Below, one piece after another: positions 14,563 through 40,893 of a stretch of 64,000 bases of DNA. The notes below the pieces were generated by a model. The model saw only the letters and a list, made by a program, of their open reading frames with translations. It did no database searches and was not told where the DNA came from. Location of the stretch: the sequence record SRR20825006_727. One strand, given 5' to 3'. A program made the position numbers and the translations under genes. Every line of letters starts with the position of its first letter. Positions within the stretch are counted from its first letter, which is position 1.

Positions 14563-15615
14563 ATGAATTTAACGAATAACGTATCCCGCATAAAACGCTC
14601 AATTTCAGAACTTGACCACGTCATTTCAGAACTCCGAGAATTAAAAAGTGCGTTCATTACCACAAAAGATGTTCCTTACCAATTTCACACCGCAATCGAT
14701 AACTTTGACGACTACGATCATTTAGAGCATTATTTTCCCATTGATCCATCAGCTCAAGTTCGGTTTAAAATTGGTCAATCAGAACCGTTACATTCTCTAA
14801 TACTGGGAAAGAACTTCGAAAAAATTTGTCTTTTCAATCAAAAAAATGGCGACTCAAACCGCTACCTCCATTATCAGATGGAAATCCAAAAAGATCAAGA
14901 ACGCTGTACGCTGCGGATTGGACTTTCCTGCCAAAAATTACGGCAAAAATCAAAAGACGATTTCATTCAACTCATCACTCATTTGGTTCGGCAAAAATTA
15001 CTCGTTATGACCCGACTGGAGATTGAAGATTTCGCAAACTGCATTATGGAGATTAATTCCGATGCTTTTTCTGGAATTTCGGCTTTCAAAGATCAATTCG
15101 AAGTGCTTACCGTTCCCGATTTCAAGCCCGTTGGCGGAATTCACTTTGTTCCTTCAATCATAACTCTCGATTTCTCACAAGACCATGCTAAGTTATTTGG
15201 AGGATTTGAGAAAATGGCAGTAGCGTTCTTATCTGCAATGGACACTTTCTTTGCCGATCAAGAGTATGTTGTTAAAGGCACAATTATCTGCGGAAATTGC
15301 TCAAAAATCTCCGAAGAAATTAAATCTATTCCCTACCAAACGGTAAGAATTCCCGTAAGCTTAACGTTAACGGATGAACATTTAGTTTCGCTAGGAAAAT
15401 CCTGGTCTAACATCAATGGAAAACGCAAGCGCATTGAAATTCGAAATTTTGCATGGAAAAATAGTAAGTCTACCTATACCGAAAATAGAATTACAATTAC
15501 ACCATTGGACGATGAAGCAGCCGTAGAAATAACCACTGAGTTTGACATCCGTGTAACCAACAAAGTTTTCAATGAAATCCACTCTACGCTTGTGCATGAA
15601 GGTGTGAGTTGTTGA
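14563..15615 (+). CDS. Hypothetical protein
   Basis: 350-aa ORF, no recognisable motif or signal peptide. Confidence 0.7.
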   Translation: MNLTNNVSRIKRSISELDHVISELRELKSAFITTKDVPYQFHTAIDNFDDYDHLEHYFPIDPSAQVRFKIGQSEPLHSLILGKNFEKICLFNQKNGDSNRYLHYQMEIQKDQERCTLRIGLSCQKLRQKSKDDFIQLITHLVRQKLLVMTRLEIEDFANCIMEINSDAFSGISAFKDQFEVLTVPDFKPVGGIHFVPSIITLDFSQDHAKLFGGFEKMAVAFLSAMDTFFADQEYVVKGTIICGNCSKISEEIKSIPYQTVRIPVSLTLTDEHLVSLGKSWSNINGKRKRIEIRNFAWKNSKSTYTENRITITPLDDEAAVEITTEFDIRVTNKVFNEIHSTLVHEGVSC

Positions 15616-15753: not shown

Positions 15754-17181
15754 ATGGAACTTAAAGATTTTGTAGTAAATATTGGTCCACAAGGAACATT
15801 TAAACCTTCAGGAAAGTATAACACCACTCCTTCGCATGTTGATGCGCTATTTGAAAGATATCATCAAGAGAATATCAAAAAAATTACGTTCTACTTTCAC
15901 GGTGGATTGGTAAATGAAAAAAGCGGGATGGAAACCGCCGTCGCTATGGAAAAAGTACTTTCAAGCGTTGGACAAACTCCCGTCTGTTTTGTGTGGGAAA
16001 CTGGATTATTTGAAACCGTTTCAACCAACATAGGTAAGATTTCAGAGACAAAACTATTCGAAAAACTTATTAAAATACTTACGAAAAAGCTCGCTTCAAA
16101 ACTAGGTTTTGCAGAGGCTGTTGGACGAGGTGCAGACGGAACATTATCCGAAGAAGAAATCGACAGTGAACTCATGCGAGAAGTTCCGTTCGAAAACTAT
16201 ACACTTGGCACGCTAGAAGCTTCGGGAAGAGGAATTAACCCAACAGATCACTTACCTAGCTCACCAGACGACCTCGAGGTAGAATTTATGTTCGAAGTAG
16301 AGAGTGACTTGGAACTAATGATGATTTTTCAAGATTCTGAACAAGCTGAATCACCCGATCCTGGAGCCCGTGGAATTTTCAGTTCTGCCGCATTGATAAA
16401 ACACCTAGCAAAAATCGCTTATCGGGTAATCAAGCGATTTATTGCTAAACGAGATCATGATTTCTACCCAACCGTTATTGAAGAATTGCTCAGAGAATTG
16501 TACATCGCGGATTTAGGAGCTTGGGTCTGGAATAATATGAAGGTTAAATCCGAAGAAATGTGGCAATCGAACACTGGAATCTTTGGAAAACATCAGCACG
16601 CAGGTCGTTATTTCTTGGATAGATTGATTGTTTTTCATCAAAAAAATCCAGAAGTCGAAATCAATTTAGTGGGACATAGCGCAGGATCCATTGCCATTTG
16701 CAATTTACTTAAAGCGAGTGCACAGCTGTCTCCATCGCTTAAATACAATTCAATTATTCTCATGGCACCTGCATGTAGAATTGACCTTTTTAAAAGTGAA
16801 GTAGTTGATCATCCTGAGCGTTTTAATTCTTTCAGAATGTTCACAATGACTGACGAAAATGAAAAGAAAGATAGACTTCTGCCTTACGTTTACACTCATT
16901 CTCTGCTGTATTTAGTTTCTGGAATTCTAGAAAATGAAGGAAACGACTTCGATGCGCAAATTCTCGGTTTAGAACGTCACATCGATCCTGATCAACAATA
17001 TCAATCGATTCCAGAAGTTATGGCGACGCATAAATTTCTTTTCGGAGAAGGTCAACAAAGAGTCGTGTTCTCGCTAAGTGAAGCTAATGCTGCGGATGGA
17101 TTAAAAACACATTCGCTCGCTCATGGCGACTTTGATGACGACGAAGAAACAATTAAAAGTATTCAATTCATGTTGAAATAG
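15754..17181 (+). CDS. Alpha/beta-hydrolase (lipase/esterase-like, DUF900-like) with large acidic insertion
   Basis: FYFHGGLV oxyanion region, LVGHSAGS nucleophile elbow, ILMAPA, C-terminal AHGDFDDD; no signal peptide; start MELKDF. Confidence 0.8.
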   Translation: MELKDFVVNIGPQGTFKPSGKYNTTPSHVDALFERYHQENIKKITFYFHGGLVNEKSGMETAVAMEKVLSSVGQTPVCFVWETGLFETVSTNIGKISETKLFEKLIKILTKKLASKLGFAEAVGRGADGTLSEEEIDSELMREVPFENYTLGTLEASGRGINPTDHLPSSPDDLEVEFMFEVESDLELMMIFQDSEQAESPDPGARGIFSSAALIKHLAKIAYRVIKRFIAKRDHDFYPTVIEELLRELYIADLGAWVWNNMKVKSEEMWQSNTGIFGKHQHAGRYFLDRLIVFHQKNPEVEINLVGHSAGSIAICNLLKASAQLSPSLKYNSIILMAPACRIDLFKSEVVDHPERFNSFRMFTMTDENEKKDRLLPYVYTHSLLYLVSGILENEGNDFDAQILGLERHIDPDQQYQSIPEVMATHKFLFGEGQQRVVFSLSEANAADGLKTHSLAHGDFDDDEETIKSIQFMLK

Positions 17182-17182
17182 T

Positions 17183-18196
17183 ATGATGGAAGATTTCGCA
17201 ATCGTAATAGGGATTAACGATTATATCCCGCCCAATGAATTTGGCTTGCGCACATTAAAAGGCGCAGTAAATGATGCCAATGCTTTTGCCGAATGGCTGA
17301 CCGATCCGTCTGGGGGAAATCTTCCTGAAGGAAACGTTCAAAAAATCATTTCCTCTCCTACTCCATTAAAACCATTTCAAGATGAAATTGATGATGGTTT
17401 TCTGGCCATTGAATCCGATGTGATCCAAAAAGGAGGAGCCGCTCGCCGACTCTATTTTTATTTTGCGGGGCATGGCTTAGGAACCTTGGAAAGCGCCATT
17501 GACACTGGGCTTTGTCTTGCCAACTGGACTGAAAAACGACGCGATTCGGCACTTTCCTCTGAATCCTATAAAGACCGGATCAAGCAGTACGGATATTTTG
17601 AAGAGATTCTGTTTATGGTCGACTGCTGCAGAAATACCAAAATTAACATTACTCCTCAAGGCCCTAAATTTTCCAGCATCACACCTGGAAGAAACTCTGG
17701 AAAGACAAAGCTATTTATGGCATACGCTACTCAATATCAAGATCAGTCCTACGAAGTAGAGTCCAACGGATCTGAAATGAGAGGAGCTTTCACGACAGCA
17801 CTGATTGACGCTTTGAATGGCGCGGCAGGAAAAAATGGACAACTTACACCGAATGATTTAAAGGATTATTTGTTCATCGAAACGCCTAAAATCGCTCAAA
17901 AAAATGGCTACAAGCAGATTCCTGAAATCTCGCATACATATCCCAATGACACGCTGCTTTTTACTTTCGAGAATAACGACACAAACGTCACCATTACATT
18001 CCTAGAAAGTCGTGAAAATCCCATCGAGTTGTACGACGGAAGTTACTCTCTGATTCAAACAATCGATCCAAAGGCGAATAGAACCAACGAATTACAGTTG
18101 GAAACAGGTTTGTATTTGTTAAAAGATACGGTCACAAGCGAGTTATTGCCATTCCAAGTTTCACCCACTCAAAGCACACACAATGTCACCTTCTGA
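17183..18196 (+). CDS. Caspase-like (peptidase C14) protease with C-terminal beta-sandwich domain
   Basis: AIVIGINDY...LKGAVNDA, YFAGHG (His), VDCCR (Cys), GAFTTALIDALNG, Q.P. Confidence 0.92.
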   Translation: MMEDFAIVIGINDYIPPNEFGLRTLKGAVNDANAFAEWLTDPSGGNLPEGNVQKIISSPTPLKPFQDEIDDGFLAIESDVIQKGGAARRLYFYFAGHGLGTLESAIDTGLCLANWTEKRRDSALSSESYKDRIKQYGYFEEILFMVDCCRNTKINITPQGPKFSSITPGRNSGKTKLFMAYATQYQDQSYEVESNGSEMRGAFTTALIDALNGAAGKNGQLTPNDLKDYLFIETPKIAQKNGYKQIPEISHTYPNDTLLFTFENNDTNVTITFLESRENPIELYDGSYSLIQTIDPKANRTNELQLETGLYLLKDTVTSELLPFQVSPTQSTHNVTF

Positions 18197-19796
18197 ATTG
18201 CTCCAAAAACACCTCATTTCCGTTCGAGTGGATGAAGAATTTATCCATTTGGTCAAACTATTTCTAATTGATTCAAAAAACAGAATGGTTCTGGCAAACT
18301 TTTCTTCTAACGAAAAATACGAATTTGAAGTAGACAAAGGTCTTTATACTTTTCGAATTGAAATTAGTGGAGAAATTAAGGATGAAATTATTGTGATTGA
18401 TGCATCAAAAAACATCCGAATCTCCAGTGAATATTCGGAAGAATCTGATACATTAATCATTCATCCACCGATGCAATATTCTTCGGCGCCTCTCAGTGGA
18501 ACGCATTCAAAAACATACAATTCTTCGCACGAATATTATACCTATCCAGCGATTGAAATTAGCAAAACAGATACTTTTTCATTAGAAAGTGAATCATCTG
18601 AAGACAGTAATTCCTCACTGTTTATATTTATTCGTTTTCCATCAGTAGAAAAATATCACGATCTAAAATCGCATTGGGAAAAACCGTTTTACGCAGATTT
18701 TGAACTTGTGGATGAATACGGTGAACAACTTGTTGATTTTAACACAAAAAACGGAGTCATTATCGATGAGCAATTTGGCTCTGTTGGCTTTAGCGCGAAA
18801 CTTCCGAACGGTATTTATTACTTGATTTATCGCGGCGATGACGCACGACAAATTCCGATTTACGTTTTCAAGAATTGGCATACGCAGTTCTTTCTAACGC
18901 TCGGCACGAAACCTCTTTTTGGAACAATTCGCATTTTTGTTTCTAATTCCCGTGCATTCAATCCAACGGAAAAAACTAACAAATACATCGATGTTCTCTT
19001 GGATAAACTCCAAAATAGAGATTACTCAATTGATCAACAATTGATTAACATTGCCGCAAGTGGTAAGTTTCAATCTCCCATGCTTGGACTCATTTGTTCG
19101 TACATTTATCTAAAAAGTAAAGAGACGAAAAGCGATCAATTGTTCTCTGTGATCACTAGGAACATGAGCAACTTAATCCTTCGCGAGAACGATGAGTCTC
19201 CTGATCTTTTTGCGCTCAAACTAATAGCTGCCGAACATTTCAATCGAGATTCAGCCGATGTCGATCTTTCAACTAAGCTCATTGGAACGCCCATGTTCCG
19301 TGTAGGATTTGAAGCTATTCAAAGAGCATCCGTATTTGATCCCAACTTAATTGATGAACGCGGAATTAATGACTTTATCACAGAATCGCTTTACTACGAT
19401 TCGCCGTTCAATACTTTTAAACCGATTCCTTTCTACAAAGCAACAAAACCATTGAGCGATTGGAATATTAAGTCTAGCATAGATGAATTGCCCAGGCTTG
19501 AAGAGATTCCAAAAGTCATGACGTTTCTTGATGCAAAAGATGCCTTTCTGGAAGAAAACGAAGAATCGTATATTTCGGATAAATTTGCCGTGAAGGTCAG
19601 TGCACTTTTTGATAACAATACACTGAAGCGCATTCGAGAATCTTCAGAAAACGTAAAAGCTGATGACTCTTGGGTAAAGTCTGCGATTGCCGATATTATT
19701 GTGGAAAATGATCAATTAACCATCAACGAAATTGCTGAAGACATTGGCGTTTCAGGAAACACGGTGACAAGGATCATTTCGAGCTGGAAGGAATAA
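18183..19796 (+). CDS. Hypothetical protein with beta-sandwich repeats and a C-terminal HTH
   Basis: 14-nt overlap with the caspase gene; C-terminal LTINEIAEDIGVSGNTVTRII. Confidence 0.75.
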   Translation: MSPSELLQKHLISVRVDEEFIHLVKLFLIDSKNRMVLANFSSNEKYEFEVDKGLYTFRIEISGEIKDEIIVIDASKNIRISSEYSEESDTLIIHPPMQYSSAPLSGTHSKTYNSSHEYYTYPAIEISKTDTFSLESESSEDSNSSLFIFIRFPSVEKYHDLKSHWEKPFYADFELVDEYGEQLVDFNTKNGVIIDEQFGSVGFSAKLPNGIYYLIYRGDDARQIPIYVFKNWHTQFFLTLGTKPLFGTIRIFVSNSRAFNPTEKTNKYIDVLLDKLQNRDYSIDQQLINIAASGKFQSPMLGLICSYIYLKSKETKSDQLFSVITRNMSNLILRENDESPDLFALKLIAAEHFNRDSADVDLSTKLIGTPMFRVGFEAIQRASVFDPNLIDERGINDFITESLYYDSPFNTFKPIPFYKATKPLSDWNIKSSIDELPRLEEIPKVMTFLDAKDAFLEENEESYISDKFAVKVSALFDNNTLKRIRESSENVKADDSWVKSAIADIIVENDQLTINEIAEDIGVSGNTVTRIISSWKE

Positions 19797-20467: not shown

Positions 20468-22462
20468 GTGTCAAGTTCAAATAAATCCATGAACCCTCTA
20501 ACACTCGGAGGAGTTTTAATTACAGTCGGAATCGTTTTTGGTGACATTGGAACATCTCCATTGTATGTTTTTCAAGCGATTACAGGGAATGGTACCAACT
20601 TTTCCCACGACCTCATCATGGGCGGACTATCGAGCGTTATCTGGACGCTAATTCTACTCGCCACAACCAAGTATATTTTCTTTGCACTCAACGCCGACAA
20701 CAAAGGCGAAGGTGGAATTTTCGCCCTCTTTGCATTGCTCAAAGCAAGAAAAATAAAATGGGTAATCATTCCAGCTTTAATTGGTTGTGCTACCTTGCTT
20801 GCAGATGGTTTCATCACTCCCGCCATATCCATTTCGTCTGCCGTTGAAGGATTAAATAGTATCAATCCTGACATTCCTGTAATTCCAATTGTGATTGCCA
20901 TCATTGTATTACTTTTTTCTGTTCAACAATTTGGAACTTCCGCAATCGGAAAAGCGTTCGGACCAATTATGCTCATTTGGTTCTTATTTCTCGGTTACTT
21001 GGGAGTTATGGCAATTTCTAAAAACACCGCTGTACTCGCTGCGTTCAATCCATATTGGGCATACAATATGATCGTGAATGTAGACGGTGGATTTTGGGTA
21101 CTTGGCGCCGTATTTCTTTGCACCACTGGCGCAGAAGCATTGTACTCCGACCTTGGACATTGTGGAAAATACAATATCCGTGTTTCTTGGTCGGCTATGA
21201 GCACCTTACTCGTTCTAAACTACTTAGGACAAGCGGCACTCTGTTTAACTCCCGGGTTTGAACTTGCGCCAAACAAAACAATCTTCTATACCATGGTTCC
21301 CGACAATTTGCTCTACTTCGGGATTGCCATCGCAACGGCAGCAACCATTATTGCCTCTCAAGCACTCATTACAGGCGTTTTCACACTCATGAACGAAGCA
21401 ATCAAACTCAAGTTGTGGGTCAATTTAAAAGTAAAATACCCATCCGAGCACAAAGGTCAAATTTACATTCCGTTTATCAATTGGTTTTTGATGGCAGGCT
21501 GTTTAGCCGTTATTGCTGTTTTCCGCAAATCAACCGCTATGGAAGCGACCTATGGTCTAGCAATTACTATCGACATGGTAATGACTTCCATTTTGCTCGG
21601 CTACTTATTGATCTTGAAATATCCGAAAGTCAAAATACTTTACATCCTCATTTTCACAGTTTTCATATCAATAGAAGGAATTTTCTTGCTTTCGAACTTA
21701 GGAAAAATCGTACACGGAGGATGGTTCACACTCCTGTTGGCTATATGCTTTTTCTCCATCCTGTTTTTGTATTACAAAGCACGAAACTTGCGAAAAACCA
21801 TTGCGGAGTACATCCCGATGAGAAAGGTAGTTCCGTTATTGAAAAAGGTACAAGCCGACGAGAAAATCCCGTACGAAGCAACAAATTTGGTCTATCCAAC
21901 CCGCAGTCCAAATCCCAATCAACTAGATGCTGGTGTATATTATTCGCTTTTCAAAAAACGTCCACGACGTGCAAAAATCGTATGGTTTATGCACCTTGAA
22001 ATTCTTAATGAGCCCTGGGGTGTGCATTATTCCGTGAACGAAATCATTGACAAACACTGTTATTACATTACGCTCCAACTAGGTTTCAAGGAAGAACACC
22101 AGATCGAATACATGATGAAGAAAATCAATCAAAAAATGATTGAAAAAGGAGAATTGAAGAACGAAAGTGTTTTTGATTGCGTGAATGGCGAATTTGACGA
22201 AGCTGACTTTAAATTTATCGTCTTGAATTCTCGTGTTGCAACAGACAATAAATTAACCCCATTCCAGAACTTGTTCGTGAAAGTATATCGTTTGATTAAA
22301 AGTTCAGGTTTACAAGCAGCTGAAGACCTCGGATTGGACAAAACAAATGTTGTAGTAGAACACATTCCTATCAGTGTGACAAAGCAATACAATTTCGAAA
22401 TAATCGAAGATTTCGAGGATTATTCCGACAAAACGGTGATCCAAAGAACAAAGAAAAAGTAG
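20468..22462 (+). CDS. kup: KUP/HAK/KT potassium transporter
   Basis: GIVFGDIGTSPLY, ADNKGEGG, DGFITPAIS, TGAEALYSDLGH. Confidence 0.95.
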   Translation: MSSSNKSMNPLTLGGVLITVGIVFGDIGTSPLYVFQAITGNGTNFSHDLIMGGLSSVIWTLILLATTKYIFFALNADNKGEGGIFALFALLKARKIKWVIIPALIGCATLLADGFITPAISISSAVEGLNSINPDIPVIPIVIAIIVLLFSVQQFGTSAIGKAFGPIMLIWFLFLGYLGVMAISKNTAVLAAFNPYWAYNMIVNVDGGFWVLGAVFLCTTGAEALYSDLGHCGKYNIRVSWSAMSTLLVLNYLGQAALCLTPGFELAPNKTIFYTMVPDNLLYFGIAIATAATIIASQALITGVFTLMNEAIKLKLWVNLKVKYPSEHKGQIYIPFINWFLMAGCLAVIAVFRKSTAMEATYGLAITIDMVMTSILLGYLLILKYPKVKILYILIFTVFISIEGIFLLSNLGKIVHGGWFTLLLAICFFSILFLYYKARNLRKTIAEYIPMRKVVPLLKKVQADEKIPYEATNLVYPTRSPNPNQLDAGVYYSLFKKRPRRAKIVWFMHLEILNEPWGVHYSVNEIIDKHCYYITLQLGFKEEHQIEYMMKKINQKMIEKGELKNESVFDCVNGEFDEADFKFIVLNSRVATDNKLTPFQNLFVKVYRLIKSSGLQAAEDLGLDKTNVVVEHIPISVTKQYNFEIIEDFEDYSDKTVIQRTKKK

Positions 22463-22463
22463 G

Positions 22464-22551
22464 GCACTCGAGCGCGTCATTCGCTGTATCCTTTTCCTCT
22501 CACTTCCAAAAAAGCTCGGAAGAAAAGGGATGCCGCTACTACCGCTAGTGC
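22464..22551. repeat. Structured intergenic element (repeat or ncRNA candidate)
   Basis: Nested stems: GCACT..AGCG with CGCT-AGTGC; TATCCTTTTC with GAAAAGGGATG; CTTCC with GGAAG. Confidence 0.45.
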
Positions 22552-22789
22552 GAAAACCTCTCAATCATTCTCATTCATACGATTTGAAGAGGAGAAGACA
22601 ATCAATCACTATTGAATCAGTATAGTCGTGTAACAACGAACAACTTATTAAAGTTCAAAAAAGTGGTCTGATTATTGAAATAAATACTTGAAAAACTTGC
22701 TTTTTTTTGTAACTTACTCTTAAAAGTGTAGTTAGAATAGATGTTGACAATTAATTTTAGCTAATTTTGCACCTTTAAAACAAACAATT

Positions 22790-34778: not shown

Positions 34779-34827
34779 AACTAAATCAAAGAATGCACAC
34801 TGAATTTCAAATTAACTTGATTAAGGC

Positions 34828-35313
34828 ATGTACAAAAAAATGAAACCTGCACAACCAATTATTGTCATAGGAACAAGCGTTTTATTGATTCTCCTTGCCT
34901 TCTTTTTTCACGTTGATTTAATGGCTTTTTCATTGGCTCAATTTGAAGGAGTATCATTCAGCACTAACATATTTGGTTCCATTTCAACTCCTTTCACATT
35001 AATCGCTGCAATTGCTTCCATCCCGATTTTCTACTTCGTCATTCATCGAATATCAGCTATTAAAACGATTTCCCAAACCATCTTGTTTTTGTTGTTCACT
35101 ATCCTCTCTGGAATTCTATTTTGGATACTCAGATTGAACTACTTAACCAGAGTTATTCAACATTTTGAAATTGATCCTACTATTCAACAAACCGTGGATG
35201 CAAGTAAACTACAATTTGAGCTATTCTGTTGGGTCGGCTTTTTATTCGGTGCGCTCCTTTCTTTCGTAATTTTAAACCTTCTGAATCGCAACAAACTCGC
35301 CTATGATATTTGA
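34828..35313 (+). CDS. Hypothetical membrane protein
   Basis: About four hydrophobic segments. Confidence 0.7.
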   Translation: MYKKMKPAQPIIVIGTSVLLILLAFFFHVDLMAFSLAQFEGVSFSTNIFGSISTPFTLIAAIASIPIFYFVIHRISAIKTISQTILFLLFTILSGILFWILRLNYLTRVIQHFEIDPTIQQTVDASKLQFELFCWVGFLFGALLSFVILNLLNRNKLAYDI

Positions 35314-35809
35314 AACTGAACGCTTACGAATAAGACTGCTACTCGAAGAAGATCGAGAATTTTTCTATGACTTGATGAGCAACCCCAAAGTGATACATCC
35401 TATTCCGCGGGAGATAATGGATCGTAAAACAAGTGATGAGCATTTTGAAAAACATTTAAATGCGCTGAACATCTCTCCAACAAAAGTATGGGCAATAGAT
35501 TCTAAAAATGGAGACCAATTGATCGGAATTGCCGCTTTTCTCAAAAACGACAAGAATGAAGATGAGATTGGATATCGATTGCGAGAAAAATTCTGGGGAA
35601 TTGGATATGGAACGGAAATCGCGAAAGGATTGCTCGACTATGGGTTTATTCACTTAAAACTTGACCTGATAACGGCTGATGTGAACACTGAAAATGAACG
35701 ATCGGTTAAAATACTCGACAAGTTCTTTCACCGCGACTTCGAATTCTATAATCCAGCCGATAAATGCACCGATCGCAGATATAAGCGAACTCGACAAGAA
35801 TGGCTATAA
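35303..35809 (+). CDS. GNAT N-acetyltransferase (RimJ/RimL type)
   Basis: ETERLRIR, EIGYRL..FWGIGYGTE, N.RS.KIL.K. Confidence 0.9.
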   Translation: MIFETERLRIRLLLEEDREFFYDLMSNPKVIHPIPREIMDRKTSDEHFEKHLNALNISPTKVWAIDSKNGDQLIGIAAFLKNDKNEDEIGYRLREKFWGIGYGTEIAKGLLDYGFIHLKLDLITADVNTENERSVKILDKFFHRDFEFYNPADKCTDRRYKRTRQEWL

Positions 35810-35892
35810 TCATTTTTCCGATTTGAGATCTAAGCTTAATTCCATAAATTGGAATATCAAAATTATTGCCAGGATAAAGAAGTACACCGTAA

Positions 35893-36459
35893 ATGAAAGA
35901 GCAAATTAAGAGATATTTCAGTCGATATGTTGAGTTTTCAGATGCTGAAGTCGATGAGATTTATGCTCAACTGACCTTCAAAACAGTCGAAAAGAAAGGC
36001 TATATTCTGCGTGAAGGACAAGTTTGCAAACACAATTTCTTTATTCTAAACGGATTAGTTCGCTCGTTTCATATTGACACGAACGGGACTGAAAAAATAA
36101 CGCTTTTCGCTATTGAAAACTGGTGGGTAACAGAGATGGATAGTTTTATCAACCAAACTCCTTCCCTATCTTCCATCCAAGCGCTCGAGGAAACCGAACT
36201 CTTACTTATCAGCAAAGAAGATTTGGAAAAACTATACATTTCCATTCCCAAGCTCGAAAGGTTGTTCAGAATTATCACTGAAAATATGCTCATCGCTATC
36301 CAACGAAGGAACAACGTATATTTACAAATGAAAAGTAAAGATCGGTATGACGATTTAATTCATCACTTCCCCGATTTTAGTCAGCGCGTTCCACAATATA
36401 TGATCGCTTCGTATTTAGAAATCACCCCCGAATATTTAAGTGAACTAAGAAGAAAATAA
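35893..36459 (+). CDS. Crp/Fnr family transcriptional regulator
   Basis: cNMP-binding barrel; RVPQYMIASYLEITPEYLSELR HTH. Confidence 0.92.
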   Translation: MKEQIKRYFSRYVEFSDAEVDEIYAQLTFKTVEKKGYILREGQVCKHNFFILNGLVRSFHIDTNGTEKITLFAIENWWVTEMDSFINQTPSLSSIQALEETELLLISKEDLEKLYISIPKLERLFRIITENMLIAIQRRNNVYLQMKSKDRYDDLIHHFPDFSQRVPQYMIASYLEITPEYLSELRRK

Positions 36460-36472
36460 TTGATTTAGTTTC

Positions 36473-36516
36473 TTAAGATACCTTAATTTTTATCCACCCG
36501 CGACGGTCTAAGTTTG
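36473..36516 (+). promoter_or_regulatory. Palindromic operator plus -7 element for the AhpD-like gene
   Basis: TTAAG-ATAC-CTTAA (36473-36486); TAAGTTTG (36509-36516). Confidence 0.6.
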
Positions 36517-36539
36517 TTGCATAATAAAAAACAGATATT

Positions 36540-36989
36540 ATGGAACGAATTACATTTAGTCAGATCCCAAAAGGAATGGTAGAACGTCTAATGGCCATCG
36601 AAGCGTACATTAAAGCATCAAAATTAGACTTGCCGCTTTTAGAACTCATGCGTTTACGTGTCGCGCAAATTAACAAATGTGCATACTGTATCGACATGCA
36701 TTATAAGGAATTAAAGCACACAGGAGAAACCGAATTGCGGATGTCAACTGTGAGTGTTTGGAGAGAAACGTCGTTTTTCACAGAGAAAGAAAAAGCCGTT
36801 CTTCAATTTACAGAAGCACTCACCGAGATCAGCGAAAAGGAAATTTCAGATGATCTTTTCAACTCACTTTCAATCTTCTTCGATATAGAAGAAATTTGCG
36901 ACCTAACTTTTGCCATTTCTCAACTCAATACTTGGACAAGGCTCGTGCGAACATTCAAATTCACAGCAGGAAAGTACGAAGTGAAATAG
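36540..36989 (+). CDS. Carboxymuconolactone decarboxylase / AhpD-like protein
   Basis: ELMRLRVAQINKCAYCIDMH; WRE..FTEKEKA. Confidence 0.9.
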   Translation: MERITFSQIPKGMVERLMAIEAYIKASKLDLPLLELMRLRVAQINKCAYCIDMHYKELKHTGETELRMSTVSVWRETSFFTEKEKAVLQFTEALTEISEKEISDDLFNSLSIFFDIEEICDLTFAISQLNTWTRLVRTFKFTAGKYEVK

Positions 36990-37016
36990 CATTCAATTTC
37001 CTCAAATGCATCAAAG

Positions 37017-37053
37017 ACAAGGGCGTTTGAAAACACATCAAGCGCCCTTGTTT
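37017..37053 (+). terminator. Stem-loop / probable terminator
   Basis: ACAAGGGCGTTTGA ... TCAAGCGCCCTTGT inverted repeat. Confidence 0.6.
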
Positions 37054-37140
37054 CCAATATAATTGCTCGAATTAAACGTACATCTGAATAAAGAGGAAAT
37101 TAGCTACCTTTGGATATCCACCGATATTTTGAAAACATAG

Positions 37141-37719
37141 ATGACAACACAAATTTTGCAGAACATCCGTTCATTGGTTCAACTAAATGACGAAGAACAA
37201 GAGGCTTTTTTGCGAATTTTAGAGGTCAAAAAGTTTAATAAAAAAGAGCTTTTACTTCAGGAAGGACAAGTGTGTAACAAAGTTACTTATATAAACAGCG
37301 GCGTTGTTCGGTTATTCTATACCGTTGAAGGAGTCGAAAATACAATTCAATTCTTTTTTGGAGATCGTTGGTATACCGACTTTGCCAGTTTTTTGACCGG
37401 AACTCCAACTCTTGAGAACCTCCAAGCGCTTCAACCTTGCGAAGTTGTTCAAATAGAAAAGGAAGATCTTTATCGCTTATACGCTGATTATCCCGTTTTT
37501 GAAAAAGTCGGTAAAATTATGGCTGAAAATGCGTTTCTATCTGTTTCACTGCTCAATCAAATGCGCGCGAATATGGAGCCTGAACTTCGCTATTTAAACC
37601 TTTTAAAAGAACGCCCTGAACTGATGCAGCAAATTCCCCAACATTATGTTGCTTCGTATTTGGGAATAAAACCAGAATCTTTGAGTAGAATTAAAAAAAG
37701 AATTTTAGAATCAAAGTGA
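37141..37719 (+). CDS. Crp/Fnr family transcriptional regulator
   Basis: IPQHYVASYLGIKPESLSRIKK HTH. Confidence 0.92.
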   Translation: MTTQILQNIRSLVQLNDEEQEAFLRILEVKKFNKKELLLQEGQVCNKVTYINSGVVRLFYTVEGVENTIQFFFGDRWYTDFASFLTGTPTLENLQALQPCEVVQIEKEDLYRLYADYPVFEKVGKIMAENAFLSVSLLNQMRANMEPELRYLNLLKERPELMQQIPQHYVASYLGIKPESLSRIKKRILESK

Positions 37720-37796
37720 TTTCATAACTCAAGTCAACGTTTTTTAGTTTCTATCCCCTCATCTTTGCAGTGTTAAATAAATTAAACAGTGCAAAA

Positions 37797-38360
37797 ATGA
37801 AAATCTCCCAAATAGTTTTATTGTTTTCACTATTGTTTGTCAGTAGTCGAACATTTGCTCAATCCAGCGTCGATTCTCAAAAAAAATGGGGTCTTGAAAC
37901 GGAGCTCGTACAGCCTTTCATTCCAACCGTTGGGATTATCCGAATTACAGGAACCTGCACGATCACCTCATCCGAACGCAAAATGAAGGGCGATTTGCTG
38001 TTCGGTTTGTATCTCCGACCAAATGTTGAGCACGACGTGGTAGAAAAAATCAATGAATACATGTTGGTTTTAGGTTATCGACACTTTTTTTGGAAGGGCT
38101 TACATGTTGAAGCAAAATCAAATATGGGTTATGCGTGGGGTTCAGAAAACCTCATCGATGGTAAAGACTACGAAACTCCAACCTGGTTTTGGGAGGCAAA
38201 TGCAGGTTACAAATTCAATTTAACGAACAGAACCAAGAGTAACATATACGTCATTCCACAAATTGGAGGTCTTGGAAAAATTATCGCGGATATTGGCCCG
38301 CGTGGTGGTAAACCAGATAACTTCTTACAAGCCAATTTACTTATCGGAATTAATTTCTAA
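37797..38360 (+). CDS. Putative outer-membrane beta-barrel protein
   Basis: Signal peptide; terminal LLIGINF. Confidence 0.7.
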   Translation: MKISQIVLLFSLLFVSSRTFAQSSVDSQKKWGLETELVQPFIPTVGIIRITGTCTITSSERKMKGDLLFGLYLRPNVEHDVVEKINEYMLVLGYRHFFWKGLHVEAKSNMGYAWGSENLIDGKDYETPTWFWEANAGYKFNLTNRTKSNIYVIPQIGGLGKIIADIGPRGGKPDNFLQANLLIGINF

Positions 38361-38378
38361 ACTCAAAACTCACACATA

Positions 38379-39035
38379 ATGAAGATTATTTTTTCACTTG
38401 TAACATTCGTTACGATCAGCTCTGCTGTGTCCTTCGCTCAGACAGAAACAAAACAAGATTTTGCGTACAGCAACAAATTCAGTGTACTCTTTGGCATGAT
38501 TCAGCCCGCCGTTCTTCAAGGATTCAATGTTGAATTAAACTACGCAACCAAAAGAATGATTTTTGACTATTCTCACGGAATCTCCCTTGATCCACCAGCG
38601 GCAGGAGATTTTCAAACCCAAAAGTTAGCCTTGCACCTTCCCTATTCGACTGGTTTTGGCATTGGATATCGCATTTCATCGTACTTAGATGTCCGTTTCG
38701 AACCTAAACTGCACAGTTGGGAAATCTATCATGAAGGAGAAGTACAAAGGAATGAAACTAGAATTGCAGATTTTAAAACGTTCACACTGGGAATCGGCGT
38801 TTACTATCGTTACATGCCGTTTAAAAACAGTGAAAGCAAATTTCTACAAGGCATTACGACTAGCTCTAGTATTCGCTACTGGCAAAATGTCGGAACGACT
38901 TTAAAAAATGACGAGTTTTCATTTACCAATAAAGAGTCGAACGTTACCCAAACGATCAAAGCTCCGAATATTGGAATGGCGAATACACCGCTGATCATCA
39001 ATATAGGAATTGGTTATACTTTCGGCGGGAAATAG
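38379..39035 (+). CDS. Putative outer-membrane beta-barrel protein
   Basis: Signal peptide; terminal INIGIGYTF. Confidence 0.7.
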   Translation: MKIIFSLVTFVTISSAVSFAQTETKQDFAYSNKFSVLFGMIQPAVLQGFNVELNYATKRMIFDYSHGISLDPPAAGDFQTQKLALHLPYSTGFGIGYRISSYLDVRFEPKLHSWEIYHEGEVQRNETRIADFKTFTLGIGVYYRYMPFKNSESKFLQGITTSSSIRYWQNVGTTLKNDEFSFTNKESNVTQTIKAPNIGMANTPLIINIGIGYTFGGK

Positions 39036-39138
39036 CAAAATAGACGAATTGAAGTCGCTTTGAAACAAATTAATACATGTATATTGTAGATTGGAAATAC
39101 CCCTCAATAACCCGATAGAGCTCCAATTTCAGTAAAAA

Positions 39139-39639
39139 ATGAAGATAATTCTCGCATTATTTCTCCTCATACCAATAGCCGCTTTTTGTCAAGAAACAGA
39201 CGAAAACGACGATTATGTTTTAAAGGGAACCACAGTATTAAAATGGAGTGATAAATACCGCCAAACACTTTATCAATATGGCTATTACCTAGACGACATA
39301 AAATCAAGCGACTGTGAATCTCAAGGTGAAAGAATTGAAGAATTAAGTGATCTGGTAACTTCGATTCGACATACAGATTCAACCATAAACGTCACCATTA
39401 CGAAAATCGGTAACTGTACAGACCAATTCTTGGGCGAGATTGAAATCATTGATGATTCTATAATCAATTTAGTCACTCATGGATATGGCGGAAGATCAAC
39501 GTGTTTGTGTTGCTTTGGTTTAGAATTCATTATTAATATGGAAACCGTCGACAAAAAAATTAAGTTCGTCATGATTGATGGAAATCGGGAAACGATAATG
39601 GAAATGATTCCACAAACGCCTATTCGAGATAATCATTGA
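39139..39639 (+). CDS. Hypothetical exported protein (Cys-rich, CLCC)
   Basis: Signal peptide; GNC and STCLCCF. Confidence 0.7.
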   Translation: MKIILALFLLIPIAAFCQETDENDDYVLKGTTVLKWSDKYRQTLYQYGYYLDDIKSSDCESQGERIEELSDLVTSIRHTDSTINVTITKIGNCTDQFLGEIEIIDDSIINLVTHGYGGRSTCLCCFGLEFIINMETVDKKIKFVMIDGNRETIMEMIPQTPIRDNH

Positions 39640-39685
39640 ATCACAAGTTCTTATTTTCACATTAATAAAATTCGAAATCTAATTA

Positions 39686-40234
39686 ATGAACACTAAAAAA
39701 AACATTCTCGGAATCTGCGGAAGTGCCAGCCAGAACTCTGGAAACCTTTTGATTCTCAAATTCATTGCTGAATCGGAAAAACTAGATTTCAATGTTGAAA
39801 TAATAGATAACTTAACTGAACTTCCACATTTTAGAACGGAGTTAACCGACGCTAACGTTCCTGCGAAAATTAGTGAGTTCAGAGCGCAAATTGAAAATGC
39901 AGATGGCATCATCATTTGTACTCCAGAGTATGTTTTTAGTATCCCGAGTGGATTGAAAAATGCCATTGAATGGTGTGTATCAACAACTGTTTTCTCTGAC
40001 AAACCAATTGGACTCATTACTGCTTCGGCAAGTGGTGAAAAAGGACATGAAGAATTAAAATTGATCATGGAAACCGTTCAAACGAAATTTTCCGATGAAA
40101 CAGCCCTACTGATTCAAGGCATAAAAGGAAAAATAAATGCTGAAGGGGAAATTACCGATCTGCAGACGGAAAAAGCAATCCTAAAACTCATTCAATCCTT
40201 CAAAGGTTTATTGGAGAATTCAAACAACATCTAA
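39686..40234 (+). CDS. NADPH-dependent FMN reductase
   Basis: GICGSAS..S.N, ADGIIICTPEY..SIPSGLKNAIEW. Confidence 0.92.
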   Translation: MNTKKNILGICGSASQNSGNLLILKFIAESEKLDFNVEIIDNLTELPHFRTELTDANVPAKISEFRAQIENADGIIICTPEYVFSIPSGLKNAIEWCVSTTVFSDKPIGLITASASGEKGHEELKLIMETVQTKFSDETALLIQGIKGKINAEGEITDLQTEKAILKLIQSFKGLLENSNNI

Positions 40235-40771
40235 ATGAAACTACTCTTTCTCATATCGACAGCCTTCTTCCTTACGATAACACTTAGTTCTTGCAACCGA
40301 ATTAAGGATAAATCAGAAAAAGTAGTCGAAAGTATCACCACAAAAACCAAGAAAGTATTTGACGAACAAAGTCAAAAAGTCGTGGACAAAGTGTTTCCAA
40401 GATTCGACCATCATAAAGCCGACACTGAGAATAACAAGAAAAGGTTCACAGACTTCTTAAAAGTCGAAATAACACCTGACGTTAAGAACATCTATTGTTT
40501 CGATGACGCCATCGGGATTGACGCTGATTACATGTTCGCGTTTAATTGTTCGCCAACCACCTCAAAAAAAATAATCGAAGTACATAAGCTAACTGTCGAC
40601 TCCAAAAACGATGACAATGGATTTGGAATGCAGAACGACCTCGATTGGTGGGATAAAGAACGTATTGAAAAACTTCAAAAATATAGCTGGACAAACGAAA
40701 ATCAATACTTTAAATACTATTGGTATGACAGCGAGAATCAAAAAGCCTATTTCTTCGACTTTGATATGTAA
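40235..40771 (+). CDS. Hypothetical lipoprotein
   Basis: LSSC lipobox. Confidence 0.75.
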   Translation: MKLLFLISTAFFLTITLSSCNRIKDKSEKVVESITTKTKKVFDEQSQKVVDKVFPRFDHHKADTENNKKRFTDFLKVEITPDVKNIYCFDDAIGIDADYMFAFNCSPTTSKKIIEVHKLTVDSKNDDNGFGMQNDLDWWDKERIEKLQKYSWTNENQYFKYYWYDSENQKAYFFDFDM

Positions 40772-40893
40772 AAGAGGCTGTTCGTCACTGGATGATGAAC
40801 TGCCAAAAAAAACTAAATCTCCGCTGTAAAAAAAGAACTTATCAGCTTGAGTAGTATATTGAAACCAAAATTCCATCCGTTAAACCAATCCGA

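Follow-up and report, generated by a model that had tools for sequence, protein, structure and literature searches.

The 64,000-nucleotide stretch of DNA analysed here (the window; sequence record SRR20825006_727) carries, on its plus strand, genes for an alpha/beta-hydrolase, a caspase-family protease and a third protein, gene 3 (Table 1). Pfam alpha/beta-hydrolase matches for the hydrolase are weak and below cut-off, and DUF900 has a share of 19-36% in its Atlas clusters. The AlphaFold model, which was built from a 148-row alignment (mean pLDDT 93, pTM 0.93), has a dienelactone hydrolase as its top structural match (Z 13.1, rmsd 4.4, 204 residues aligned), and model, structural match and alignment agree on an alpha/beta-hydrolase fold with a near-invariant Ser-Asp-His triad. 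From general knowledge of alpha/beta-hydrolases, we take the HGG sequence to be the oxyanion-hole motif. Foldseek with this model gave nothing at E≤0.001 and VIA-align returned generic alpha/beta-hydrolases only, so that the fold points to no substrate. The searches yielded 696 homologues, the best 120 of which were aligned, and among 50%-identity representatives the family comprises 544 clusters at E≤1e-30.

Table 1. Genes and sequence features of the hydrolase-caspase locus, with positions in the window.
Feature	Position	Strand	Basis
Alpha/beta-hydrolase, 475 aa from ATG, predicted zymogen, DUF900-like	15754..17181	+	ORF calling
HGG, presumed oxyanion-hole motif, residues 49-51	15898..15906	+	invariant in 120/120 best homologues
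Basic helix preceding insert, residues 100-118, net +5 (family median +5)	16051..16107	+	model, charge count
Site 1, R125/G126, predicted caspase cut	16126..16131	+	conservation; co-varies with site 3
Acidic helical segment G126-R206, 81 aa, 9.0 kDa, net -19, predicted cut-out	16129..16371	+	composition, model
Site 2, R159/G160, optional extra predicted cut	16228..16233	+	144/215 distant, 113/120 close relatives
Site 3, R206/G207, predicted cut; new N-terminus G-I-F-S	16369..16374	+	Arg or Lys in 120/120
Basic helix following insert, residues 207-235, net +6 (family median +5)	16372..16458	+	model, charge count
GHSAG nucleophile elbow, residues 307-311, Ser309	16672..16686	+	Ser in 335/336 aligned relatives
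Asp373, likely triad acid	16870..16872	+	kept in 315/336 aligned relatives
His457, likely triad base	17122..17124	+	328/336 aligned relatives, gaps in remainder
Caspase-family protease, 337 aa, H97/C149 dyad, directly after hydrolase	17183..18196	+	PF00656, E 8e-14
Caspase Ala95, two residues before catalytic His	17465..17467	+	goes with Arg-only partner sites
Gene 3, 537 aa, overlaps caspase gene	18183..19796	+	model, profile comparison

The 350-residue ORF directly upstream (14563-15615, plus strand) matches no family above cut-off, has no homologue in 66 genome loci and lies outside the conserved operon. A Flavo-1 RNA is found on the minus strand at 22466-22556, just after a 664-residue ORF (20468-22462), and the closest named relatives are Bacteroidota; from both, the source is probably of that phylum. 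About 6 kb of the window (34779-40893) hold no ORF of at least 250 residues and no Rfam match, and in a scan for promoters and terminators the shuffled sequences yielded more sites than the real one.

An earlier note on this DNA had described an acidic segment with three small-R-G motifs between the HGG motif and the GHSAG elbow, and this is confirmed in the hydrolase ORF, although the positions given there cover the motif cores (GRG, GRG and GARG) and not the full seven-residue motifs. The protein contains exactly three Arg-Gly dipeptides, at R125, R159 and R206, and all lie in the acidic stretch. Asp and Glu make up 24% of residues 118-211 compared with 15% of the whole protein, Lys is absent from this region and three of its four Arg belong to RG pairs, and the net charge of residues 126-206 exceeds in magnitude the family median of -11. 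In 200,000 shuffles of the acidic segment, the probability of at least three RG was 0.0024 and that of at least three small-R-G motifs was 4.5e-5, and shuffling of the whole hydrolase gave 0.09 for at least three RG; all three values are post hoc, and conservation is a stronger test of the motifs. The insert is modelled as mostly helical and well packed, with conserved residues E139, L140, P145, F146 and D185, and model confidence falls only in the three RG loops (pLDDT block means of 68, 81-82 and 57-70 for loops 1, 2 and 3). Hence, the linker-like context formerly ascribed to the motifs does not describe the insert overall. The length of the insert varies widely among the relatives, the sequence of the predicted cut-out fragment is less conserved than the core (0.49 vs 0.66), and mutual information over the hydrolase alignment gave no convincing contacts between the insert and the active site.

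The sites themselves are conserved although nearby columns vary. At sites 1, 2 and 3, respectively, a basic residue (Arg or Lys) occupies P1 in 118, 113 and 120 of the 120 best homologues and Gly occupies P1' in 108, 83 and 110 of them, whereas conservation in the P3-P4 columns is no more than 16-46%. A pooled set was assembled from the best homologues, distant representatives and loci, and it contained 335 sequences with an intact N-terminal part and 215 after thinning to <60% identity. An [RK][GSA] pair lies no more than three residues from sites 1, 2 and 3 in 196, 144 and 200 of these 215 relatives, against a background of 96 in 1171 (8%) 8-mers taken from the insert helices. With a slash marking the predicted scissile bond, the consensus across relatives is G-[GAS]-[RK]/G, and at site 3 positions P2'-P4' are conserved as hydrophobic-hydrophobic-Ser. 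Basic-small motifs are thus retained in loops that are otherwise variable and modelled with low confidence.

The residues at sites 1 and 3 also switch between Arg and Lys together. Both are basic in 201 of the 215 relatives (RR 116, KK 58, RK 16 and KR 11), the 14 rows without a basic residue at one site having been set aside. On a tree built from the hydrolase core, with the insert left out, 41 tree-independent pairs differ at site 1; the change at site 3 has the same direction in about 25 of them and the opposite direction in about two; eight control R/K columns gave 0.2-5.7 either way with no trend like that of site 1, and whole-protein K/R usage does not account for the co-switching. Indeed, when columns were not chosen beforehand, corrected mutual information placed R125-R206 fourth among 110,215 pairs of columns. 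Site 2 follows site 1 more weakly (12 vs 2), and mutual-information pairs involving site 2 are unremarkable. From the alignments, sites 1 and 3 are the core pair and site 2 is an optional one, and the sites behave like substrates of a single protease.

The neighbouring caspase has the features expected of such a protease. Its profile matches to solved structures are metacaspase and MALT1, the dyad is intact in 67 of 67 family members, and of the acidic S1 residues D147 is present in all 67 and D31 and E191 in 66 each. By motif position rather than by superposition, these three residues probably correspond to D365, D462 and E500 of MALT1, described in PMC4357240 as its Arg-binding S1 residues. 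They are placed on alpha1, L4 and L5, as in the Arg/Lys-specific clan CD proteases for which that source gives positions (MALT1 and TbMCA2), and TbMCA2 Ser156 is listed there in the S1 pocket (PMC4357240). Self-cleavage of the caspase or of the gene-3 product at RG is not supported, as their RG/KG pairs are unconserved save for a core xRG at caspase position 200.

A single position of the caspase goes with the residue found at the partner sites. Of 260 columns, residue 95 best separates caspases with Arg-site partners from those with Lys-site partners (p 1e-5, 54 loci), a column chosen post hoc among the 260. All 62 basic partner sites are Arg in the 23 loci where the caspase has Ala95, compared with 84 Arg and 58 Lys in the 50 loci where it has Ser95, and 16 of these 50 Ser95 caspases have Arg-only hydrolase partners. 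Among ten later loci examined by eye, with two duplicate loci dropped, four of four with Ala95 were Arg-only and five of six with Ser95 had Lys. The caspase of the window has Ala95, and its hydrolase partner has three Arg sites. Since the tree gives just four supported independent pairs (sign test p 0.125), we regard the residue-95 rule as a strong lead and not as proof. By the numbering of the catalytic His, residue 95 is presumably the same position as Ser156 of TbMCA2, and a parallel is provided by Ser190/Ala190 of the trypsin-like proteases. If the Ala/Ser rule holds, it would furnish a one-residue predictor, read from natural enzyme-substrate pairs, of Arg versus Lys preference in bacterial caspases.

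The conserved unit across loci consists of three genes, and gene 3 comes after the caspase in 61 of the 62 caspase loci with enough DNA. The gene 3 model shows two beta-sandwich domains, a helical domain, a disordered linker and a C-terminal HTH, and the family scan gave a weak C-terminal HTH match only. Structural matches, sought chiefly outside the middle domains, are limited to generic beta-sandwich and HTH folds (best Z 8.2, rmsd 2.5, 65 residues aligned), and an Atlas lead, Y4kD_C, scored 0.81, below the trusted level. The gene 3 profile does match the C-terminal domain of three of three Lysobacter-type caspases (E 2e-9 to 1e-3; hhalign 85%), and therefore the caspase together with gene 3 represents a split form of that type. 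We consider the gene-3 product a probable regulator, adaptor or trigger component, and because it is encoded by a separate gene, the trigger can be studied alone. Fusions are also seen between the members of the unit: the caspase is joined to gene 3 in six loci, the hydrolase to the caspase in one protein (P0201), and, by eye, a gene-3-like domain to the hydrolase in two others (P0127 and P0264). In plasmid NZ_CP062230.1 (L154:10522-15905), a trypsin-like protease and a PLD domain form a fusion with gene 3, the linker of which contains Leu-Glu motifs; the following gene encodes a second trypsin, so that two protease-effector modules are chained.

The presence of the sites also goes with the presence of the caspase. 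Among 99 insert-bearing loci (47 insert-less loci were left out), a caspase is present in 79 and absent in seven, and 13 are too short downstream to tell; an orphan hydrolase is defined here as one with no caspase within the flanking DNA covered. Among complete copies, 72 of the 75 next to a caspase retain site 1 versus none of the five without a caspase, and site 3, read in register as [RK]G, is retained in 71 of 75 versus two of five, the five caspase-less copies representing four lineages only and including one fused to subtilisin. Site 1 is likewise missing from a further orphan, which has a housekeeping-type gene as its neighbour. Copies with neither caspase nor sites thus exist, and they retain the hydrolase core. 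The sister hydrolase family has no insert and no caspase neighbour, and a papain-type C1 protease is fused to the hydrolase in 10 of 11 members scanned.

A number of individual relatives depart from the standard arrangement. The subtilisin (S8) fusion (L017:5957-8761) is an insert-bearing hydrolase without RG sites that has Ala/Gly-rich loops at the site positions. Another caspase-less relative (L131:2387-3922, L135) has a basic insert (net +8) instead of an acidic one, and at L018:7004-8386 a fragmented hydrolase gene is accompanied by a short caspase ORF, gene 3 being absent. Two relatives, P0195 and P0183, have repeats of a Leu-Glu-small motif in place of the usual RG and, judging by these motifs, may pair with a Glu-specific protease; no loci for them were found in the sampled genomes. 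The insert-less sister hydrolases lie behind a papain C1 domain (L019-L065, e.g. L019:5432-8182 and L061:5417-8215), which in some is itself preceded by a GH19 or amidase domain; they have a conserved RRRPEG at the insert position and are possibly another self-contained zymogen family. In P0206, P0212, P0252 and P0253, hydrolases mostly without RG sites follow a 200-residue domain with conserved Cys and His that has no Pfam match and looks thiol-protease-like by eye. In P0180 and P0144 the fusion partner of the hydrolase is an MBL-fold domain or another alpha/beta-hydrolase (DUF7379), and by domain make-up these are tandem effectors.

The insert-bearing form is sparsely distributed, with occurrences in 6/400, 2/390, 0/390 and 2/390 sampled genomes of four groups (centres not counted), and plasmid occurrence amounts to six records at ≥80% cover. 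Clear defence neighbours were identified by PADLOC in four of 22 loci (107 of 115 neighbour proteins covered, the orphan locus left out), in which the module is flanked by type I restriction genes, comes immediately after Gabija, or is a neighbour of AbiL or of PDC-S73. For the three window genes PADLOC gave no dedicated system, only a generic caspase model, and no relative was found in viral contigs. The patchy spread and the defence neighbours fit a defence role without proving it, and the context is modest.

Based on these data we put forward a mechanism in which the three genes form a protease-effector module and the hydrolase is made as an inactive zymogen. We propose that the Arg-specific caspase next to it would cut the hydrolase after R125 and R206, and often after R159 too, to release the acidic 81-residue segment, and that the 13.9 kDa piece with the oxyanion motif and the 30.8 kDa piece with the Ser-Asp-His triad would stay together as the active enzyme. 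The gene-3 product would probably control the caspase or act alongside it, and the active hydrolase would most likely kill or arrest the cell during phage infection. We consider this explanation likely as a whole. Cleavage of the hydrolase by the caspase, which the earlier note had suggested, is very probable in our view: site conservation, Arg/Lys co-switching, loss of the sites in caspase-less relatives and coupling to the S1 residue all support it, as does the experimental work on a hydrolase-caspase pair of Lysobacter capsici AZ78 (Evans et al., 10.1101/2025.11.14.688446). In that study, LcCaspase cuts the 296-residue LcHydrolase into three, putatively at R73/G and R117/G, the N- and C-terminal pieces together are toxic and the middle piece is dispensable for toxicity. 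That cleavage activates the hydrolase is also highly likely, and an anti-phage role for the module is reasonably so. The feature is real and the mechanism advanced in the earlier note, removal of the insert, as a putative autoinhibitory lid, by the adjacent caspase, is very likely right in outline; in the Lysobacter model, removal of the middle piece lets a lid form and does not take a lid away (10.1101/2025.11.14.688446).

How loss of the segment would lead to activity can be pictured in more than one way. The acidic insert and the basic helices on either side of it, with family medians of -11, +5 and +5, suggest an electrostatic shield over a membrane-facing surface, and it is conceivable, if somewhat doubtful, that loss of the segment unmasks the two helices and that the enzyme then reaches membrane lipids. 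A more ambitious and correspondingly more speculative version holds that this is a cross-phylum three-gene death module in which Ala or Ser two residues before the catalytic His sets Arg-only versus Arg/Lys cutting and has repeatedly co-evolved with the substrate sites. Free-standing gene 3 would then be the trigger-sensing subunit, removal of the acidic shield would expose a pair of basic helices by which a lipase is brought to the membrane of its own cell, and copies fused to other proteases would have swapped RG for other motifs.

An alternative that differs in the last step only, and that we think unlikely, retains the same cuts and activation but has the freed ends, above all G207-I-F-S, refold into a lid, and the acidic pieces may stay bound. 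The toxicity of LcHydrolase requires junctions exactly at the scissile bond, and its new N-terminus is modelled within the lid (10.1101/2025.11.14.688446); here, the hydrophobic-hydrophobic-Ser pattern after site 3 is conserved, the insert, with its conserved residues, is modelled as well-packed helices, and all three pieces stay bound in the MBL nuclease zymogen. Against this, the LcHydrolase middle piece is dispensable, the sister family has no insert at all and the insert is highly variable in length. It is improbable that the caspase instead switches an active hydrolase off, or that the released acidic fragment is the product that matters. The fragment is indeed strongly acidic, and the caspase-less, site-less copies that keep the core suggest that the uncut form may be active, but the sites all bound a dispensable insert and none lies in the catalytic core, the fragment is less conserved than a core whose triad is near-invariant, and the Lysobacter relative that was tested is switched on by cutting (10.1101/2025.11.14.688446). 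Most improbable is that the RG motifs are hinges or docking marks bound by the caspase without being cut, since Gly-rich loops are commonly hinges but a hinge would not explain why two sites far apart co-switch between Arg and Lys, track a caspase S1 residue or decay where the caspase is missing, and the dyad of the caspase is invariably intact.

The proposed zymogen module resembles the Lysobacter pair in several respects. In both, the alpha/beta-hydrolase gene adjoins the caspase gene, and the stretch from the HG motif to the nucleophile elbow contains an acidic middle piece flanked by R/G (or K/G) sites. Homology is also seen between the caspase domains (hhalign 98%), and the LcCaspase type, a caspase with a C-terminal beta/helical domain, is present here in split form as the caspase gene and gene 3. 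Indeed, the window combines what marks a module of the type of Evans et al., namely a triad-bearing fold, an adjacent intact caspase and two conserved R/G sites around a cap-region fragment. The two systems differ in that LcHydrolase has 296 residues and a cut-out of about 44, compared with 475 residues, a cut-out of 81 and a third site here; in gene order, which is caspase-hydrolase in the Lysobacter-type loci examined and hydrolase-caspase-gene 3 here; in gene 3, which is separate and has extra beta-sandwich and HTH parts in place of a fused C-terminal domain; and in distribution, since the closest named relatives here are Bacteroidota whereas Evans et al. name Actinobacteria and Pseudomonadota (10.1101/2025.11.14.688446).

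For the hydrolases themselves, comparison was made with 119 relatives of a Lysobacter-type family member of about 290 residues that was reached via a short motif, rather than with LcHydrolase itself. K/G stands at both sites in 110 of these 119, and R206/G aligns, weakly, with their second site. No significant sequence or profile similarity to these 119 motif-found relatives was detected: hhalign gave a probability of 11.7% (E 0.0025), and cross HMM searches of the two families gave best E values of 0.021 and 0.0026 in sets of 264 and 119. Since the likeness of the hydrolases is weak, the Lysobacter cleavage result transfers by analogy. Hence, the module would work like the Lysobacter pair, with a hydrolase that appears, from these comparisons, to be a separate, larger sequence family outside the LcHydrolase family.

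Other known systems share parts of this arrangement. In the MoxR-vWA-VMAP ternary conflict systems, Kaur et al. 2020 (PMC7159879) describe caspases that are obligately paired with an alpha/beta-hydrolase encoded next to them; the pairing is the same, whereas the conserved unit here is three genes, and the scanned flanking genes matched an unknown protein and a DinB-like one and included no recognisable MoxR, vWA or VMAP gene. Double cleavage of a linker by trypsin-like proteases activates a latent effector in the MBL nuclease zymogens of Avs and Hachiman (10.1101/2025.11.14.688446; see also PMC12799240), but fold, protease class and P1 (Ile) differ from those here and all three pieces are needed there. 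Metacaspases and the MALT1 paracaspase have the same His-Cys dyad and acidic S1 positions, whereas the caspase here is bacterial, has a dedicated neighbouring substrate and has an Ala/Ser residue 95 that tracks Arg/Lys in that substrate. The papain(C1)-fused sister hydrolases share the core HGGL, GHSAG, SLLYL and HG but are about 133 residues shorter between HGG and GHSAG, without the acidic insert or a caspase neighbour. The papers of Evans et al. and Kaur et al. were the only literature found to bear on the long hydrolase family, in a search that most subscription papers fell outside; the accessible parts of PMC8195603 and 10.64898/2025.12.03.692087 contain nothing specific to it, and the supplement of Evans et al. 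may show its neighbourhoods. The family is apparently unstudied.

Double R/G cleavage that activates a hydrolase-caspase pair is already known from Lysobacter. What is new here is that the hydrolase family is larger, that a third site is optional, that the caspase domain is split and that Ala/Ser at residue 95 offers a lead on specificity. The mechanism, tested so far on a single Lysobacter pair, is thereby extended to a second, larger hydrolase family, and because the exact cut sites and fragment masses are named, the test is cheap.
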